Shown one piece after another: positions 1 to 10,418 of a stretch of DNA of 64,000 bases (its first letter is position 1; the number at the start of each line of letters is the position of its first letter). The DNA lies in assembly GCF_000026545.1 (NCBI RefSeq), contig NC_011601.1, one strand, 5' to 3'. The translations under genes were made by a program, and so were the position numbers. The notes beneath the pieces were generated by a model. The model ran no database searches and had not been told where the DNA came from. It was given only the letters and a program-made list of their open reading frames with translations. The stretch is from Escherichia coli O127:H6 str. E2348/69. Its GTDB lineage: Bacteria; Pseudomonadota; Gammaproteobacteria; Enterobacterales; Enterobacteriaceae.

Positions 1-307
1 ACCGAGGTTCTATTTCCGTAAATAGTGGTGAGCCCTCATCCCAGATCCCAACATCATAGTGACTGCCGACGCCAAAGAATTTCGGTAGATCAACATAACC
101 ATAAAAATCAAACCAGTCTTTTCTTCCTGCTACAGTATATTCAGGGTAGAGGTCGTTAGTCAGTCTTGGGCCAAAGCGAGAGTCTGTGCGACCAATGACA
201 TTCAAGCTTTGATGTAACCAGCTTTCATCAATTTTAATTTCCTGAGCGTTTCCAATGCAAGGTATTAATAGAATGGATAAAGCTATCCAGTGCTTTTTTA
301 TATACAT
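1..307 (-). CDS. Tsx-family nucleoside-specific outer-membrane channel, N-terminal part only (gene continues beyond window start)
   Basis: Reverse-strand translation from ATG at 305-307 gives [21 protein letters not shown] (signal peptide) followed by ...FGPRL.ND.Y.EY....[10 protein letters not shown]...FFG.......GIW..GSPLF.EIEPR, which matches the conserved N-terminal region of E. coli Tsx as I recall it. Not in the ORF track because it runs off the window edge. Confidence 0.65.
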
Positions 308-383
308 AAATATATCTCTTATATATTGTTGATTTAGAGAGAAATAATGTCATCCAGTGAATGAATGGTATTATAAGTTTTTG

Positions 384-2003
384 TTATTTGCTTACTTCTA
401 CCCGCATTTCATTTACCTGTGCAGGAGTAATCTTGTGGCCTTTCTTAAAATAATCGATTACGACATTGGACATGTTATTTCCGGCGCGGACCTGGACATT
501 TTTCCCTTCTTTGAATGCCAGAAAACCATCGCCCCCAAGTGCAAGGAAAGTCGTAGTCGCAACATGGTAAATATTCGTATCAACGATCTCTTCACCATTA
601 ATTTTAAAAGATACAATGCGCTGACCTACTGGTTTCTGCAGGGTATAGCGCATTTCTGCGCCTTTTGACATTTGCAGGATGCCATTGGTAAGCGATGCCC
701 CGTGCTCCAGTAGGTTACGCAGATCCTTACCGCTGAGATCCATTTCAGTAAGTTCATTCTTGAAGGGGAATGTACTGGTAATGTCACCAAAGGTAATCGT
801 GCCTGCATTTATATCAGCACGTAAACTGCCGGAGTTTATCAACGCAATTTGTGCAGTCGGTGCAGCGACAAGCATTGCATCGGTAAACAGGTTGCCAAGT
901 TGCGATGACTCACCGTAGGCACGAGTTAATGCAATCGATGATTCACCGACTGGTTGGCGTACAATATCCGCCAGTTTTTTATTCCAGCCATTGATAACTT
1001 TTTGTGTGGTTGGATCGGGTATCCATTCATCGGCATAAACCGTTTTCAGCTCAAAGCTCTTCACTTTATGAGTACGAGCTGTAGGGTTGACATCAAGGAT
1101 TAATTTACCAATATCGATACCGCCACTGTCAGTCGAAAGGATTAAGGTGTTGCCGACTTTGATTGGTTCTGGCGTTCCGACGTGGGCATGCCCGGTAATC
1201 AGAATATCCAATCCTTTCACCTTGCTTGCGGTTTGAATATCTTTATCCAGCGCACGTCTAACATCTGTATTGCCAATGCTGGACTGACGCGCCGGTACGC
1301 CTTCATGAACCAGCGCCACGGTGAGGTCAACCTTATCACGTAACTCGTCGATATAATGCTGCAAATACTTCACTTCATCACGTGCTTCAATCCCCTGATT
1401 CTTGAGGGTCGCGGAAGATTTATCAAATCGGTTATTATTGTCATTATCGAGTCCCTGGAGAGAGAGCTCCGAGACCGTGTCATTAAATGCAAATACGCCG
1501 TGTAGCCCAACAATACCAATCTTGATGCCATCTTTTTCCAGGATGGTGTAGGGCTTGTTCCAGAAGGGTTTCTCACTCTCTTTATGATAAACATTGCCTA
1601 ATAAAACAGGGAAATTCGCTTTGCTTAATTGTCGGAGGGCATTATCCCAGCCATGGTCAAACTCATGATTACCGATTGATACTGCGTCAAAAGGCATGGT
1701 ATTCATAATATCAATTATTGCTTCGCCCTTTGTCAGGCTACTGATATATGGCCCGGTGAAATAGTCTCCAGCATCAAAATAAAAGGTGGCTTTATTTTTG
1801 GCTTTCTCTTGTTTTACTAACGTGGATATATTGGCAAAGCCACCAATGTCGCGTTTTCCGTCTGCGACATACGGTACTTTATAGGAATCCACATGAGCGT
1901 GAAGATCATTGGTATAAATAATCGTGACATCCTGCGCCATGACTGAGGTCGAAAAAATAGTCAGCAATGTTGCGGCAAGTAAAGTACGCTGCGCTGTTTT
2001 CAT
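384..2003 (-). CDS. periplasmic 5'-nucleotidase / metallophosphoesterase, UshA-CpdB family (paralog 1)
   Basis: ORF 384..2009; signal peptide (MKTAQRTLLAATLLTIFSTSVMA); calcineurin-like metallophosphatase motifs NDLHAH, DAGD, GNHEFD, GHAH. Start set at second ATG (2003) for better RBS spacing. Immediately upstream of and co-oriented with the Tsx-like gene. Confidence 0.8.
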   Translation of the reverse strand: MKTAQRTLLAATLLTIFSTSVMAQDVTIIYTNDLHAHVDSYKVPYVADGKRDIGGFANISTLVKQEKAKNKATFYFDAGDYFTGPYISSLTKGEAIIDIMNTMPFDAVSIGNHEFDHGWDNALRQLSKANFPVLLGNVYHKESEKPFWNKPYTILEKDGIKIGIVGLHGVFAFNDTVSELSLQGLDNDNNNRFDKSSATLKNQGIEARDEVKYLQHYIDELRDKVDLTVALVHEGVPARQSSIGNTDVRRALDKDIQTASKVKGLDILITGHAHVGTPEPIKVGNTLILSTDSGGIDIGKLILDVNPTARTHKVKSFELKTVYADEWIPDPTTQKVINGWNKKLADIVRQPVGESSIALTRAYGESSQLGNLFTDAMLVAAPTAQIALINSGSLRADINAGTITFGDITSTFPFKNELTEMDLSGKDLRNLLEHGASLTNGILQMSKGAEMRYTLQKPVGQRIVSFKINGEEIVDTNIYHVATTTFLALGGDGFLAFKEGKNVQVRAGNNMSNVVIDYFKKGHKITPAQVNEMRVEVSK

Positions 2004-2043
2004 TCGCATTCCTTGTTAAATAAATTGACTGATAAATGAGATT

Positions 2044-3597
2044 TTATTTGGCGACGTCCATGACTCGTTTAGTTAAGTCTGGGGTGACAGGTTTATGATT
2101 TTTGAAATAATCGATGATAGATTCCGCCGAGGTTGTTCCCGGTATCGTCTTCACATTTTTTCCATTCAAAAATGCTTCAAAACCGTCACCACCACTGGCA
2201 CAAAAGGAGTGCGTGGCAATACGATATGTTTGATTATCTTCCACGGGTTTGCCGTTAATGGTGAAAGAGATTAACCGTTGGTTGAGTGGTTTTTTGCTGT
2301 CATAGACAACCGCAACGCTTTTTGAAACCTGTAACACACCGTTAGTTAGATTGGTTGCATGCGTCATCAATGATTTGAGATCGCGGCCCGTCAAATCCAT
2401 CTCGATGAGGTCATTATTAAAGGGGAATGTGCTAATAACATCTCCCAGTGTGATATCGCCTTTAGGAAAATCAGCTCGCATCCCACCGCTATTTTGAAAT
2501 CCGGCAACGGCATCAGGTGTTTTTTCCATCATTGCATCAAGAATAAGGTTGCCGGTAGAAGAGGAACTACCATACTCACGTGTTAAAACTATGGGAGAAT
2601 GGCCGACAACTTCCTGTGTTATTTTGTTAAGCTGTGCACTCCATTTATCAATAGTATTTTGAACGATGGTGTCAGGTTTAAATTGATCTGCAAAGATGGT
2701 GATTAACTCACCATTATAACTATCAATTTTCTTCGTTTTCGGATTGTAATCAAGCACAAGTTTTCCGATGTTGGTGCCGTATGCATCGGTAGATACAATT
2801 AATGTGTTATTAACTTTTATTGGTTGCGGTGTTCCGACATGTGCGTGACCGGTAATTAAGACATCAACACCATTCACTTTTTTAGCTGTCTCAATATCTG
2901 CCTGTAGTAGCCGCTCCACATCTTTACTACCAAAGCTTGATTGACGCGCCGGGACACCTTCGTGAATTAGCAAAACGGTAATGTCGACTTTACCTTTTAA
3001 TTCTGCAAGTGCTTTATTTAAAAATTTAATTTCGTCTCTGGCTTCTACGCCTTCACGTGCTTTTGCCGCGACAGTATCATAGAAAGCGAATGCGCCATGC
3101 AATCCAATCACACCAATCTTTAAACCATCTTTTTCGATAATGGTCCACGGATGATCCCAAACTGGTTTATTCGTATCGGTGTAGTAGATATTTCCCAGCA
3201 GAATGGGGAATTTTGCTTTTGATAACTGAGACACCATATTGGGCACACCGTGATCGAACTCGTGATTACCAACAGACACCGCATCAAAGGGCATAGTGTT
3301 CATGATATCAATAATAGCTTCACCTTTGGTCAGTGTGCTGATATACGGCCCGGTAAAATAGTCGCCTGCATCAAAGAAAAACACATCTTTGCTTTTTTTC
3401 TTCGCTTCATTAACGATGCCTGCAATATTAGCCATACCACCTATAAGTCTGTTCTTATCAACAGCGATGATTTTTGCCGGATTGACATGTGCGTGAATGT
3501 CATTCGTATAATAAATAGTAACGTCCTGAGCTAGAACACTGTGAGAAAATATCACGCCGAATATGACTGATAATGTTGTAAATACAGTTTTCATCAT
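2044..3597 (-). CDS. periplasmic 5'-nucleotidase / metallophosphoesterase, UshA-CpdB family (paralog 2)
   Basis: 517-aa ORF with signal peptide and the same metallophosphatase motifs (NDIHAH, DAGD, GNHEFD, GHAH); more divergent than paralogs 1 and 3. AGGAGG-like RBS just upstream. Confidence 0.8.
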   Translation of the reverse strand: MMKTVFTTLSVIFGVIFSHSVLAQDVTIYYTNDIHAHVNPAKIIAVDKNRLIGGMANIAGIVNEAKKKSKDVFFFDAGDYFTGPYISTLTKGEAIIDIMNTMPFDAVSVGNHEFDHGVPNMVSQLSKAKFPILLGNIYYTDTNKPVWDHPWTIIEKDGLKIGVIGLHGAFAFYDTVAAKAREGVEARDEIKFLNKALAELKGKVDITVLLIHEGVPARQSSFGSKDVERLLQADIETAKKVNGVDVLITGHAHVGTPQPIKVNNTLIVSTDAYGTNIGKLVLDYNPKTKKIDSYNGELITIFADQFKPDTIVQNTIDKWSAQLNKITQEVVGHSPIVLTREYGSSSSTGNLILDAMMEKTPDAVAGFQNSGGMRADFPKGDITLGDVISTFPFNNDLIEMDLTGRDLKSLMTHATNLTNGVLQVSKSVAVVYDSKKPLNQRLISFTINGKPVEDNQTYRIATHSFCASGGDGFEAFLNGKNVKTIPGTTSAESIIDYFKNHKPVTPDLTKRVMDVAK

Positions 3598-3826
3598 CCC
3601 TCCTAGATAGGGGGTGTTACATTTGTTGAATTATTTAAATAAAAGACACATCGTGTCTTATTTTATGTAAGCATAGTTCAGAAAAGTATTGTGTGATCTT
3701 AGTAACAAATAATGTTATTAATTAAACATTGACCATGATTATATTTCACGGTCATACATTTATATATTTAATTAAATGAAAGGTAGTGATCTCTCTTAAT
3801 TTATGGTCGTTTGTCGAGTGTATTGA

Positions 3827-4951
3827 CTAACAAGATGGAGTGAGCGATTCATTGTATTTTAACGCCAGTGAGGTCAGCATTTGCGTTACGCGACCTGCGG
3901 ATAATAACGCGCTTTGGGTAAAGTCGTGTTGGTCTGTCAGCCATGTGATAAAACAACGACTGGTTGCCAGAGAAACATTTGCGCCCCTTTCTAAGCAGGC
4001 TCCCGTGAGTAGGCAGACCATCTTGCAGTTATTCCCCTGCTCCCAGCGCTGCCACTGATTTTGCCACCAACCATGGTATGTCGTTCCCTTAAAATGCCAG
4101 GGCGTATCAGCGTTACTGTCACTGATTTCTTCTTCTACGAACCAAAGTTCACCTTGTTGTTGGCGGAACTGATCTGCCCAGGCTGTAATAATTGCGCCTC
4201 TTAGAAAACATTCGTGTGAAATAATATGCGTTTTGACATCTGGATAGCGGATTTTCAGTATTCTGAAATGCCCGTGTGCCTTGATAACCGGGCGTAGTAT
4301 GGCTCCCTTACCGTTGCGCTTGAGTACAGCACTGCCATACTGAATTTCATCGAACTGGCTCCGGCGCAAGAATTGCGCTTCACGCATATCTACCTTCTGC
4401 ACGATATCGCGATGGTGCATAGTTGGTTCTGTGTTGCCCTTGTAACTGTACCGCAGACTGTCTCCTGTCTGATGTTGCGTATAATTCGTGGAGAGATGAA
4501 GAATGTTGCCACGAGTGGCGTCAAGACTGACTAAAACATACAGTTTTTGTACTGCGCTGGCCCCTTGAAAGGGTATGAACAGTTGAACGGTTTCAATGGC
4601 CTGGGGATGCGTAATTTCTTTCTGATATTTTTTAGGCGTCCAGACTTTTTTGCAGTTACGGCATTGAATGCGTTGCGAACCCTGTGGATTGTGACCATAA
4701 CAAATCATGTCTGTGCCATAACATACCGGGCAGAAATGGCCTTTCTCAATTGCATAAGTAGACAAGTGAACTGACAACCAGTCACGAAATTGTTGCTCGT
4801 CAAACAACGGCGGGTAACTGCCACATGCCCGACAGTGCAGTGCCGGATAACCCAGTTTATAGTCTGGCCAACTGTAATCTTCCGATGAGGCCAATCCCAA
4901 ATTTCGGCAACCGAACGTTTTACAGGCATTAATCGTAAACAGAGTCGACAT
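3827..4951 (-). CDS. hypothetical Cys-rich protein, predicted cytoplasmic, possible zinc-ribbon protein
   Basis: 374-aa ORF with no signal peptide. N-terminal half contains several CxxC pairs (CRACGS, CPVCYG, CRNCKK); C-terminal half is Trp/Gln-rich. I cannot assign a family from sequence alone. Confidence 0.55.
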   Translation of the reverse strand: MSTLFTINACKTFGCRNLGLASSEDYSWPDYKLGYPALHCRACGSYPPLFDEQQFRDWLSVHLSTYAIEKGHFCPVCYGTDMICYGHNPQGSQRIQCRNCKKVWTPKKYQKEITHPQAIETVQLFIPFQGASAVQKLYVLVSLDATRGNILHLSTNYTQHQTGDSLRYSYKGNTEPTMHHRDIVQKVDMREAQFLRRSQFDEIQYGSAVLKRNGKGAILRPVIKAHGHFRILKIRYPDVKTHIISHECFLRGAIITAWADQFRQQQGELWFVEEEISDSNADTPWHFKGTTYHGWWQNQWQRWEQGNNCKMVCLLTGACLERGANVSLATSRCFITWLTDQHDFTQSALLSAGRVTQMLTSLALKYNESLTPSC

Positions 4952-5083
4952 ATATCACCAACGATTTCACAAGGTCGTTGATTTTGTCCGGCAACTATCC
5001 CCTGCGGATGTGATTACTCTCACATAAATAAGTCTTTCAGAACGTAATGTAGCAATCCTTTATCTCACTGAAAGGGATTGTTT

Positions 5084-6637
5084 ATGAAAATTAAAATACT
5101 TGCTGCGGGTATCGCATTAACACTGCCGTTCTGGGCTTGCGCTAAAGATGTCACTATTATTTATACCAACGACCTCCATGCGCATGTAGAACCTTATAAA
5201 GTGCCGTGGATCGCTGACGGTAAACGGGATATTGGCGGCTGGGCAAATATCACTACGCTGGTTAAGCAAGAAAAAGCAAAAAATAAAGCGACATGGTTTT
5301 TTGATGCGGGCGACTATTTTACCGGGCCATATATCAGCAGCCTGACCAAAGGTAAGGCTATTATCGATATTATGAATACTATGCCGTTTGATGCCGTCAC
5401 AATAGGCAACCATGAATTTGACCACGGCTGGGACAACACATTATTACAGTTGAGCCAGGCAAAATTCCCTATTGTGCAGGGCAATATTTTTTATCAGAAC
5501 AGCAGTAAATCATTCTGGGATAAGCCCTATACCATCATCGAAAAAGACGGCGTGAAAATTGGCGTTATAGGTTTGCACGGAGTATTTGCCTTCAATGATA
5601 CGGTATCTGCTGCCACGCGCGTGGGTATTGAAGCGCGCGATGAAATTAAATGGCTACAACGTTATATCGATGAACTCAAAGGCAAGGTTGATTTGACCGT
5701 CGCCCTGATCCACGAAGGTGTTCCAGCCCGCCAGTCCAGTATGGGAGGCACAGATGTGCGTCGCGCGTTGGATAAAGATATTCAGACGGCAAGTCAGGTG
5801 AAAGGGCTGGATATTTTGATCACCGGACATGCACATGTGGGTACGCCGGAACCGATTAAAGTCGGCAATACGCTCATCCTCTCCACTGACAGCGGCGGGA
5901 TTGATGTGGGCAAACTGGTTCTCGACTACAAAGAGAAGCCGCATAATTTTACGGTGAAAAACTTCGAGCTTAAAACCATTTACGCTGACGAGTGGAAGCC
6001 CGATCTGCAAACGAAACAGGTGATCGACGGCTGGAATAAAAAGCTTGATGAAGTGGTGCAACAAACGGTGGCGCAATCGCCGGTTGAATTAAAACGTGCC
6101 TATGGTGAATCGGCTTCCCTCGGGAACCTGGCGGCTGACGCCTTACTGGCAGCAGCGGGTAAAAATACCCAACTGGCTTTAACAAACTCTGGTGGTATCC
6201 GCAATGAGATCCCCGCAGGGGCGATCACGATGGGCGGCGTCATCAGTACCTTCCCGTTCCCCAACGAACTGGTGACGATGGAACTCACGGGTAAACAATT
6301 ACGCAGTCTGATGGAACACGGCGCAAGTTTAAGCAATGGCGTTTTACAGGTATCGAAAGGCCTGGAAATGAAGTACGACAGCAGCAAGCCGGTTGGTCAG
6401 CGGGTAATCACACTGACTCTGAATGGCAAACCCATTGAAGATGCGACGGTTTATCACATTGCTACTCAGAGTTTCCTTGCTGATGGTGGAGATGGTTTTA
6501 CCGCCTTTACCGAAGGGAAAGCGCGTAACACAACGGGCGGTTATTACGTTTATCACGCGGTGGTTGATTACTTCAAAGCGGGCAACACCATTACGGATGA
6601 ACAGCTCAACGGTATGCGCGTGAAGGATATCAAATAA
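5084..6637 (+). CDS. periplasmic 5'-nucleotidase / metallophosphoesterase, UshA-CpdB family (paralog 3)
   Basis: ORF 5078..6637 begins with TTG; the ATG at 5084 with upstream AAGGGA is the likely start ([20 protein letters not shown] signal peptide). Closest paralog of the 384..2003 gene. Confidence 0.8.
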
Positions 6638-6914
6638 AAGTGCGCACTGAATTGACTCAACCGTTTGTTACCCGTTGATTGCGCAGATCCTGTATTCGGC
6701 CTACGCGAGGGCGCAGGCCGAATCAGATGCCTTAGCATCACCATCCGGTGGCAGGACGTTGTTTTTAGAATTAGCCCAGGTGTCGCTGTGTTGTCAGAAT
6801 ATGAGTCAAAACGTGCGAGGTGGATTGCGCTATAGAGAAATCTTTTATCGCCTCTAATTAAGATGAGTTTTTTTCATCTTCCCTGATTTTTCCTCACCAT
6901 CATTGGTTATTTTT

Positions 6915-6985
6915 CGGTTGACGCCCTTCGGCTTTTCCTTCATCTTTACATCTGGACGTCTAAACGGATAGATGTGCACAACACA
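6915..6985 (+). promoter_or_regulatory. metF promoter region with MetJ operator (met-box repeats)
   Basis: TTGACG at 6918-6923 and an AGACGTCT-like met box (GGACGTCTA at 6954-6962) followed by a related repeat, about 40-100 bp upstream of metF. Assigned by known metF regulation. Confidence 0.45.
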
Positions 6986-7015
6986 ACATATAACGATAAG
7001 CGATTGATGAGGTAA

Positions 7016-7909
<894 letters not shown>

Positions 7910-8183
7910 ATAGTGTGCCTTTTGTGAAAATCACACAGTGTTCACAAATTTTAAACAGAGCACAAAATGCTGCCTCGAAATGAGGGCGGGAAAATAAGGT
8001 TATCAGCCTTGTTTTCGCCTTCATTACTTGAAGGGTACCAGGCTAAAACCTTTTCTTATAAAGCATTCTGCCGAAATCAGACATACTCATAAAGGCTTAA
8101 TTACGATCAATTTGATCTACATCTCTTTAACCAACAATATGTAAGATCTCAACTATCGCATCCGTGGATTAATTCAATTATAA

Positions 8184-10418
<2,235 letters not shown>

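Follow-up and report, generated by a model that had tools for sequence, protein, structure and literature searches.

In Escherichia coli K-12, the nucleotide and nucleoside scavenging set includes UshA, CpdB, AphA, Tsx and genes controlled by CytR, DeoR and CRP, which are scattered over the chromosome. Here we describe a cluster of five genes upstream of metF in E. coli O127:H6 strain E2348/69, at the left end of the window (the whole 64-kb stretch of DNA that was analysed), encoding a Tsx-like outer-membrane channel, three nucleotidases (nuc1, nuc2 and nuc3) and a cysteine-rich cytoplasmic protein, referred to below as CysR. The cluster shares with the K-12 set the superfamily and predicted periplasmic location of its enzymes, a Tsx-family channel and CRP-type promoter sites. 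It differs in that its genes are clustered, with up to 3-4 paralogues per module, that its nucleotidases fall under every curated equivalog cut-off (150-165 bits against 600 bits for UshA), and that the partner gene encodes a zinc-ribbon/RNase-H-fold protein instead of a LacI-type (CytR) or DeoR-type regulator.

The same locus is GR31 (metL to metF) of the avian pathogenic E. coli (APEC) strain BEN2908 and other B2 strains, tabulated as Tsx plus three UshA-like open reading frames (ORFs), for which coordinated nucleoside processing and transport has been proposed in silico (PMC12928451, 2026). The preliminary description of this stretch, which did not recognise a described system here, has to be corrected on this point, and a structure of nuc3 has also been deposited. 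The hypothetical ORF encoding CysR does not appear in the retrieved GR31 passages of PMC12928451, which present the region as shared among model strains and leave core-pair ancestry and mosaic structure unmentioned. Literature searches on c4894-c4898 and on domesticated transposase regulators of nucleoside genes returned nothing relevant. No account was found of this transposase-derived family or of its constant link to nucleoside genes, nor of the core pair being ancestral and the five-gene form mosaic in origin.

Domesticated transposases acting as cellular factors include the Piv invertase (IS110-like), the TnpB-derived TldR repressors, and eukaryotic FHY3/FAR1 and CENP-B. CysR resembles them in its transposase-derived fold, in purifying selection and in being stably kept by the host beside a constant genomic partner, and differs from them in belonging to the IS1 lineage, in its link to nucleoside metabolism and in being known here from sequence and a predicted fold. 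Compared with IS1 InsAB'/InsA, the second zinc ribbon is homologous, the helix-turn-helix is also present in longer relatives, an RNase-H fold of the transposase/integrase type is predicted, and the start region of the gene itself is overlain by an inverted repeat, much as that of insA is by the IS1 left end. Unlike InsAB', CysR has an extra N-terminal Cys4 ribbon, its E. coli subfamily is devoid of the helix-turn-helix, and a DDE domain is undetected; unlike IS1, the gene is single-copy, syntenic between genera, without terminal repeats and always adjoins nucleoside or nucleotide genes.

Overall, CysR is best described as a host gene derived from an IS1-type transposase and, judging by gene context, is the cluster's most constant component, with a nucleotidase gene as its invariant partner; in many gut and marine bacteria its family adjoins genes for the use of nucleosides or nucleotides. 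The window was 100% identical to the chromosome of the enteropathogenic strain E2348/69, NZ_CP059840.2, from which the RefSeq annotation was taken (window coordinate = L001 coordinate - 9000, L001 being the 25-kb annotated surroundings). The RefSeq order was metB, metL, a Tsx-family channel (-), two nucleotidases (-), a 374-aa hypothetical protein (-), the third nucleotidase (+), metF and katG, all three enzymes being labelled 'bifunctional metallophosphatase/5'-nucleotidases'. The genes are as follows:

1..307, minus strand: tsx-like, 5' part of the outer-membrane channel gene (RefSeq coding sequence, NCBIfam, 1TLW alignment)
384..2003, minus strand: nuc1, predicted periplasmic UshA-superfamily metallophosphatase/5'-nucleotidase, 539 aa, orthogroup 1 (ORF, RefSeq, motifs)
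2044..3594, minus strand: nuc2, predicted periplasmic nucleotidase, 516 aa, orthogroup 2 (ORF, RefSeq, motifs)
3827..4951, minus strand: CysR, Cys-rich cytoplasmic protein, 374 aa (ORF, RefSeq)
5084..6637, plus strand: nuc3, predicted periplasmic nucleotidase, 517 aa, orthogroup 3 (ORF, RefSeq, PDB 3IVD/3IVE)
7019..7909, plus strand: metF (ORF, RefSeq)

The ORFs and the RefSeq annotation agreed on the five genes as they had initially been placed upstream of metF, including the divergently transcribed third nucleotidase and a co-oriented, tightly spaced minus-strand unit of tsx-like, nuc1 and nuc2 (gaps of 76 and 40 bp from RefSeq starts). Two RefSeq starts lay 6 nt inside the mechanical ORFs (nuc1 at 2003, not 2009; nuc3 at the ATG at 5084, not the TTG at 5078).

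A sequence search recovered about 250 relatives of CysR, all in Enterobacteriaceae (57-99% identity), labelled 'cytoplasmic protein' and without a Pfam domain. In Enterobacter hormaechei, Citrobacter freundii and Klebsiella sp., the CysR gene was divergent from a nucleotidase gene across an identical 132-bp gap, and two of these three loci lay at a site unrelated to metL-metF, with a Tsx gene and a second nucleotidase. The locus scan (one genome per species, 17-sequence alignment) comprised 36 loci, annotated by BLASTP against reference proteins. A divergent nucleotidase gene stood beside the CysR gene, across a gap of about 130-180 bp, in all 35 enterobacterial loci with an upstream flank, and 23 of the 36 loci were situated between metL and metF. 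The occupants of that site included Citrobacter (many species), Klebsiella pneumoniae, K. oxytoca, K. spallanzanii, Kosakonia, Phytobacter, Superficieibacter, Pseudocitrobacter, Kluyvera, Salmonella arizonae and Escherichia whittamii, and S. Senftenberg had the same arrangement. Larger modules at other sites contained nuc1, Tsx, nuc2 (sometimes a second nuc2) and nuc3, all divergent from the CysR gene; they were found in Enterobacter asburiae, Citrobacter sp. wls619 and two cryptic-clade Escherichia strains, whose genomes also carried the metL-metF pair. Escherichia sp. MOD1-EC7003 was one such two-locus genome (L016 and L040).

The association extended to distant relatives. An exhaustive HMMER search of 1.84 billion representatives yielded 124 family clusters, many of 400-570 aa and 20-40% identical, and AFDB neighbours came from Vibrio, Photobacterium, Enterovibrio, Proteus, Serratia and Salmonella, labelled 'cytoplasmic protein' or, in many cases, mislabelled 'IS1 family transposase'. 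Eight members were sampled from the 124 family representatives for genomic context, and all eight (20-40% identity) adjoined nucleoside or nucleotide genes:

L008 and L011: divergent nucleotidase beside the CysR relative
L009 and L010: divergent NupC-type transporter and nucleoside phosphorylase (PNP)
L048: nucleotidase ending 16 bp upstream of the relative, same strand
L049: divergent operon of transaldolase, adenosine deaminase, DeoC, DeoA, DeoB and DeoD, with a Bmp-type nucleoside ABC transporter on the opposite side
L050: Tsx and a nucleotidase two genes off
L051: nucleoside phosphorylase ending 42 bp upstream of the relative, same strand

Moreover, some E. coli possessed a second paralogue (25% identity, 414 aa) between mokC and nhaA (strain RHB23-SO-C02, L054 3597-7245), adjoining a 253-aa Tsx-family channel and a sulfatase-type hydrolase, and its IS1/IS1595 zinc ribbon scored above cut-off; K-12 presumably has IS186 at this spot. 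These contexts provide strong evidence for a functional tie, as yet contextual in kind, between the CysR family and the uptake and breakdown of nucleic-acid-derived nutrients. The protein had initially been called an orphan unrelated to its neighbours, which its partners in 35 of 35 loci and in 8 of 8 distant relatives contradict.

Some copies of the gene were truncated or split, namely in Salmonella arizonae (L045 8001-8522), Kluyvera genomosp. 3 (L041 8001-9100), Citrobacter amalonaticus (L047 8001-9213) and one Escherichia sp. copy (L040 8001-8630), the adjacent nucleotidase also being broken in some of these loci. Either the gene is still decaying in some lineages, or CP022114.1, in which katG and metL are fragmented as well, contains sequencing errors. 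A conserved palindromic hairpin (AAGGGTTCATG...CATGAACCCTT) resembling a terminator or a repetitive extragenic palindrome (REP)-type element lay 3' of the CysR gene in both Enterobacter asburiae and Citrobacter sp. wls619, and L021 had a further copy in the nuc2-nuc3 interval (L021 6256-6283 and 9195-9222; L043 9192-9227).

Concerning protein structure, eight cysteines were invariant (C10, C15, C40, C43 and C74, C77, C97, C100), a pattern that points to two Cys4 zinc ribbons. The second ribbon gave sub-threshold matches to IS1/IS1595 and InsA models, and 10 of 59 family members matched Pfam Zn_ribbon_InsA at E <= 0.001. In hhalign, positions 71-151 of the family profile aligned with residues 5-87 of InsA (96% probability, E 1.4e-9; IS1 InsAB' sequence entered by hand), a stretch that covers the InsA helix-turn-helix, which was kept in all longer relatives. 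The AlphaFold2 model, built on the 59-sequence alignment, reached a predicted local distance difference test (pLDDT) score of 93.7 and a predicted template modelling (pTM) score of 0.93; the predicted fold was RNase-H-like, of the transposase/integrase type, with DDE transposases, integrases, EndoV and Piwi as nearest structures. No Pfam or NCBIfam DDE domain (including DDE_Tnp_IS1) and no other Pfam catalytic domain was recognised in any of the 59 members, and the NCBIfam IS1 transposase model NF033558 matched the zinc ribbon only (22.5 bits against a cut-off of 100). Residues R197, H228, H246, E247, N156, Y168, Y205, W296 and W300 were conserved family-wide, R197 and H228 being invariant and H246 near-invariant, and an acidic residue (D/E) was present at positions 144, 201 and 247 in 78%, 88% and 100% of the family, respectively. 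PDB sequence-profile matches of the family to C2H2 zinc fingers were set aside as artefacts of Cys/His spacing.

The gene behaved as a host gene. Its ratio of nonsynonymous to synonymous divergence (dN/dS) was 0.08-0.25, and none of five modules was bracketed by terminal inverted repeats, the repeats seen being hairpin terminators or paralogous coding sequence. Only 19 of 72,556 plasmid records had a match to it, none of them mobilisable, and those inspected were chromosome pieces: PLSDB entries NZ_LN868945.1, NZ_CP141089.1, CP125156.1 and CP099174.1 were chromosome fragments or whole chromosomes containing metJ-metB-metL-metF-katG or dnaK-dnaJ-nhaA. Two copies within one genome were only about 68% identical and came from different module types. 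Being single-copy, syntenic, under purifying selection, free of terminal repeats and nearly absent from plasmids, the gene is thus considered a host gene rather than a mobile element. An anti-phage defence system was rejected as well, as PADLOC returned no match for CysR, three relatives or the nucleotidases.

The promoter regions contained the following elements, none of them assigned to a strand:

4952..5083: shared divergent control region of the CysR gene and nuc3 (alignments)
5009..5024: perfect CRP core TGTGA-N6-TCACA, TGTGATTACTCTCACA, about 65 bp from each divergent start codon
3692..3707: CRP-like site TGTTACTAAGATCACA, one mismatch, preceding the nuc2 start by about 105 bp
4959..4980: inverted repeat CAACGA-N10-TCGTTG, close to the CysR gene start on its 5' side, over the presumed transcript start
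5034..5074: inverted repeat CTTTCAG-N27-CTGAAAG, spanning the putative -10 box and 5' untranslated region of nuc3, its right arm overlapping the nuc3 ribosome-binding site

The control region (about 130 bp) showed a mean column identity of 86% over five loci in four genera, with the same blocks in a 37-sequence alignment, and was better conserved than the CysR coding sequence. The CRP core TGTGATTACTCTCACA was the sole perfect match in the window, against 0.06 expected, and was recognisably conserved across the aligned loci; at up to one mismatch, positions 1-7100 contained just the two matches listed, both in promoter regions. From the spacing, we infer a core position near -41.5 relative to a plausible -10 box on either side (CAAAAT for CysR, TAAnGT for nuc3). 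The right arm AAATCGTTGGT of the 4959-4980 repeat was invariant in the 36 loci retaining that part. In a subfamily with 40% identity, an inverted repeat occupied the same place with both arms changed (CGACTGA...TCAGTTG), and a CRP-like site was kept. Taken together, these elements suggest catabolite control of both transcription units plus a second, local factor, for which CysR is the obvious candidate.

Other signals in these regions were considered. An RNA hairpin or riboswitch formed by CTTTCAG/CTGAAAG in the nuc3 leader was rejected, as variant loci had changes in a single arm without compensation, and an Rfam search of positions 1-8300 came back empty at a cut-off as loose as E <= 1. Copies of the invariant control-region motif A(A/G)ATCGTTGGT were also present 40-100 nt inside nucleotidase genes (L021 3593-3603, 6118-6128 and 7771-7781; L004 8083-8093; L022 3045-3055; L038 2847-2857). 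The recurrence of AAATCGTTGGT there was treated as coincidence, since it is the complement of the T-N-D codons of the catalytic YTNDLH motif; such copies could serve as internal binding sites but are probably coincidental. Two adjacent one-mismatch CytR octamers (GTTGCATT) were located at 3616-3632 (GTTACATT and GTTGAATT), between the 3692-3707 CRP-like site and the nuc2 start. They are weak, were found post hoc and have a single CRP site nearby, a CytR operator being an octamer pair between tandem CRP sites, and no CytR octamer was found between the CysR gene and nuc3.

The metallophosphatase motifs I-V (NDxHA, GDYFTG, GNHEFD, xHEG, GHAH) were present in all three nucleotidases, and by inspection their N-termini combined a basic n-region with a hydrophobic core and an AxA site, so that all three look exported to the periplasm and catalytically intact, as had initially been stated. 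A lipoprotein is unlikely for nuc3 because the Cys of its 'WACA' is not conserved (WASA in C. freundii). Nucleotidase orthologues in other loci contained PF00149 and PF02872 (Metallophos and 5_nucleotid_C), which places nuc1-nuc3 in the UshA/CD73 superfamily by domain content. However, they scored 156, 165 and 152 bits, respectively, against the UshA equivalog NF007109 (cut-off 600 bits) and also fell under every CpdB, NadN, SoxB and YfkN-type curated cut-off; by these scores, they are not UshA orthologues. Residues 21-519 of nuc3 matched PDB 3IVD/3IVE (E = 0, 1123 bits), two entries that we take to come from structural-genomics work on CFT073 c4898, with bound uridine or cytidine and no associated paper.

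The nuc1-type orthogroup, with an insert of about 22 aa, was conserved at about 86% identity between genera, nuc1 and the distal nucleotidase of Klebsiella sp. (L007) sharing 86% identity. The nuc3-type orthogroup, usually the one divergent from the CysR gene, reached about 90% (90-91% for E. coli nuc3 in Citrobacter and Enterobacter), while nuc2 was 71-72% identical to its Enterobacter/Klebsiella orthologues and 56-57% to nuc1 and nuc3. As each group was conserved across genera, with only 53-71% identity among the three, the paralogues appear to be old and separately maintained. They probably differ in substrate range, in keeping with the substrate diversification first suggested for them.

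The tsx-like gene extended 554 bp beyond the left window edge, with metL next; the window keeps its N-terminal 102 codons. It was not a pseudogene, but an intact coding sequence of 286 aa (L001 8447-9307, RefSeq). Its product, about 70% identical to Tsx, scored 492.8 bits against the NCBIfam Tsx subfamily NF011686 (cut-off 311, residues 2-286 of 286 covered), and residues 29-286 aligned with residues 11-272 of the solved 12-stranded Tsx barrel 1TLW (E 7e-115). By score and full-length alignment, it is therefore assigned to the Tsx nucleoside-specific channel family, and would provide either parallel nucleoside entry or a widened specificity.

At the population level, 658 (12%) of 5426 complete E. 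coli genomes carried 80% or more of the 7-kb segment and 1840 (34%) the CysR gene and nuc3 pair, in single copy in each, while the remaining 66% resembled K-12. In K-12, 199 unrelated bp replaced the 7.64-kb segment, homology ending at the metL stop and restarting at window position 6869, in agreement with the reported absence of the cluster from that strain. Two further features delimit the history of the locus:

4640..4940, no strand: recombination transition within the CysR gene (sliding identity against strain KE26, synonymous divergence)
6638..6868, no strand: right-hand end of the segment missing from K-12, with a REP-like palindrome (homology to K-12 restarts at 6869)

In the two-gene haplotype (strain KE26, L003), the CysR gene converged into the metL stop codon. 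Sliding identity between E2348/69 and KE26 was 98-100% rightwards from about position 4940 (control region, nuc3, metF), 82-95% over 4640-4935 (the zinc-ribbon part of the CysR gene) and 50-80% further left. Synonymous divergence (dS) between the haplotypes was about 1.0 in the CysR gene, compared to 0.054 in nuc3, 0.038 in metL and 0.025 in metF. From this mosaic identity and the dS contrast, the five-gene form is read as a block recombined into a resident two-gene locus, the predicted import comprising the three genes tsx-like, nuc1 and nuc2 along with two-thirds of a diverged CysR allele, from its 3' side. No source of the block was identified among the relatives compared: the closest non-E. 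coli CysR, from Pseudocitrobacter cyperus (82%), belonged to a plain two-gene locus, for which reason this species is not established as the donor. No integrase, tRNA or flanking repeat (genomic-island criteria) was found at the locus.

As the same site was occupied across genera, the core pair is considered ancestral at metL-metF, and K-12 a case of loss. A foreign origin of the whole cluster, which the preliminary description had favoured, thus applies to a part. G+C was low (0.36-0.48 across positions 1-5000, against 0.54-0.60 in metF and katG), and by sequence pattern only the tsx-nuc1-nuc2 block, with the 3' two-thirds of the CysR gene, behaves as an import. Likewise, the synteny comparison proposed with it revealed co-occurrence of the CysR gene and nuc3 across genera, with tsx-nuc1-nuc2 as a separate add-on. 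The 'E. coli' strain SCPM-O-B-8794 (L020, L013) shares only about 92.6% identity with E. coli across kdsA-hemA and for that reason probably belongs to a cryptic Escherichia clade. It carried two modules, the metL-metF pair and a five-gene module adjoining kdsA, the latter being found in none of the 5426 complete E. coli genomes.

In our reading, to which we give about an even chance, the locus is a CRP-controlled module for the dephosphorylation of nucleotides in the periplasm, with an accessory Tsx-type channel and a transposase-derived local regulator. cAMP-CRP would probably turn the module on once preferred carbon sources are exhausted, up to three exported UshA-superfamily phosphoesterases would strip phosphate from nucleotides or nucleotide-containing compounds in the periplasm, and the Tsx paralogue would raise outer-membrane permeability for the substrates and/or nucleosides, after which general inner-membrane nucleoside transporters and the deo/udp/cdd pathways would take over. 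The invariant core would consist of nuc3 and the divergent cytoplasmic protein with its two zinc ribbons and RNase-H-like domain. CysR would be a locus-specific control protein, most likely DNA-binding, whose targets would be the conserved inverted repeats in the shared region together with its own promoter, by analogy with InsA acting on IS1 ends. In E2348/69 and other B2-type strains, the tsx-nuc1-nuc2 block would have joined the ancestral pair by recombination inside the regulator gene. The analysis shows the gene content and its intactness, the export-type signals, the predicted fold, homology, synteny, conservation and selection, and the presence of CRP-type sites; the substrates, the CRP dependence and any regulatory activity of CysR are what we infer in this scheme. 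A scavenging role had already been suggested and fits the gene content and CRP sites, whereas the order given for it, stripping phosphate outside the cell and importing the nucleosides through Tsx, is illogical because the nucleotidases are periplasmic and their substrates cross the outer membrane before dephosphorylation.

Extended to the whole family, CysR and its relatives in Enterobacterales and Vibrionales would be domesticated IS1-type transposases, a family so far undescribed, recruited as dedicated controllers of nucleoside- and nucleotide-scavenging operons, which we advance tentatively and at somewhat below even probability. Such a controller could be a nucleoside-responsive transcription factor whose operator descended from a transposon end, or alternatively an enzyme acting on DNA through a new active site that R197, H228, H246 and E247 would form.

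Several points weigh against the proposed regulated scavenging module. Canonical Tsx is nucleoside-specific, so that nucleotide entry via its paralogue is speculative. The conserved blocks of the control region could be explained by promoter, CRP and ribosome-binding elements alone. No Pho box was found within 3 mismatches of consensus, 4-mismatch matches lying solely in or beside the nuc2-nuc1 junction, no match to a DeoR operator was found, and the CytR-like octamers are the weak ones described above. The helix-turn-helix is gone in the E. coli/Enterobacteriaceae subfamily through a deletion of about 50 residues, and DNA binding would consequently rest on the zinc ribbons. In addition, the spacing of D144 and D201 (57 residues) equals our own count for IS1 InsB, and the conserved acidic positions 144, 201 and 247 may leave room for a catalytic, non-regulatory activity.

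These last features bear on the possibility that CysR is an enzyme (an RNase-H-fold nuclease, a recombinase or another nucleic-acid processing activity) that feeds or protects nucleoside salvage and is merely co-expressed with it. The proximity of its fold to DDE transposases, integrases, EndoV and Piwi, the acidic positions with invariant R197 and H228 and near-invariant H246, the lost helix-turn-helix and the operon-like position of relatives directly downstream of a catabolic gene on the same strand in L048 and L051 all speak for it. We nevertheless consider it unlikely: periplasmic nucleotide scavenging has no apparent need for a cytoplasmic nuclease, close relatives are always divergent with a conserved shared control region, which is the usual layout of a local regulator, the module lacks any other regulator gene, and a Pfam catalytic domain was recognised in 0 of 59 members. 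The transposase ancestry also invites the view that CysR is a working or recently decayed IS1-like transposase with the nucleotidase and Tsx genes as passengers. It would explain the varied chromosomal sites (kdsA in cryptic-clade Escherichia; elsewhere in Enterobacter and Klebsiella sp.) and would suit the InsA homology, the transposase-type fold, the conserved acidic residues and the mosaic recombination in E. coli. However, copy number and synteny largely refute it, and we regard it as very improbable. Each of the 1844 E. coli genomes carrying the gene has a single copy, copies within one genome are about 68% identical and of different module types, and the metL-metF site is occupied in at least 8 genera with inter-genus dS at or near saturation. 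Furthermore, an element end would find no space, as the gene abuts or runs over the metL stop codon, terminal inverted repeats are lacking, the gene is absent from mobilisable plasmids, and the IS1 model gave 22.5 bits for a cut-off of 100; hitch-hiking also does not explain why distant relatives keep the nucleoside-gene link in quite different arrangements.

A main role outside nutrition has also to be weighed for the nucleotidases, namely action on signalling nucleotides, through conversion of host extracellular ATP/ADP/AMP to adenosine or destruction of cyclic (di)nucleotides or NAD, as a fitness or virulence factor of B2, extraintestinal pathogenic (ExPEC) and enteropathogenic (EPEC) strains. 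The superfamily includes CD73, NadN and CpdB, the three paralogues suggest substrate breadth, and the five-gene form was found in E2348/69 and in the ExPEC, APEC and adherent-invasive (AIEC) strains listed for GR31 (PMC12928451). The core pair, however, occurs widely among environmental and commensal Enterobacteriaceae, and 34% of E. coli, drawn from many sources, carry it; the predicted location of the enzymes is the periplasm, not the cell surface, the CRP sites point towards catabolism, and distant family members adjoin plainly catabolic deo, PNP and NupC genes, which leaves a signalling role doubtful and, in our view, improbable.

Around metF, REP-like palindromes lay just 5' of the promoter region in both haplotypes (window ~6688-6730; K-12 L002 ~2890-2930), with different sequences (GTATTCGGCCTACGCGAGGGCGCAGGCCGAATCAG in E2348/69 against AGGCCGGATTAAGCG...AATCCGGCAAG in K-12). 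An antisense ORF of 167 aa in the mechanical ORF list (6854-7357, minus strand) overlapped the metF start, and the K-12 RefSeq annotation contains a 44-aa 'hypothetical protein' antisense to the metF leader (L002 2941-3075, minus strand); both are probably spurious. An IS3-family element, IS1397 (transposase with a programmed frameshift), was present between yijF and gldA in E2348/69 (window 12258-13603; L001 21258-22603).

Overall, the textbook account of nucleotide and nucleoside scavenging in E. coli is built on K-12, a strain without the ancestral enterobacterial module that persists in one third of E. coli, in most Citrobacter and in Klebsiella pneumoniae, and whose enzymes have a solved structure and no known substrate. 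What would pass for a 'B2-specific island' can combine an ancestral core with an add-on, the two being joined by intragenic recombination. The interest of the locus lies mainly in the partner protein, CysR, as the stable recruitment of a DDE-type transposase as a host factor for one metabolic theme, if that is what the family represents, would be rare in bacteria.

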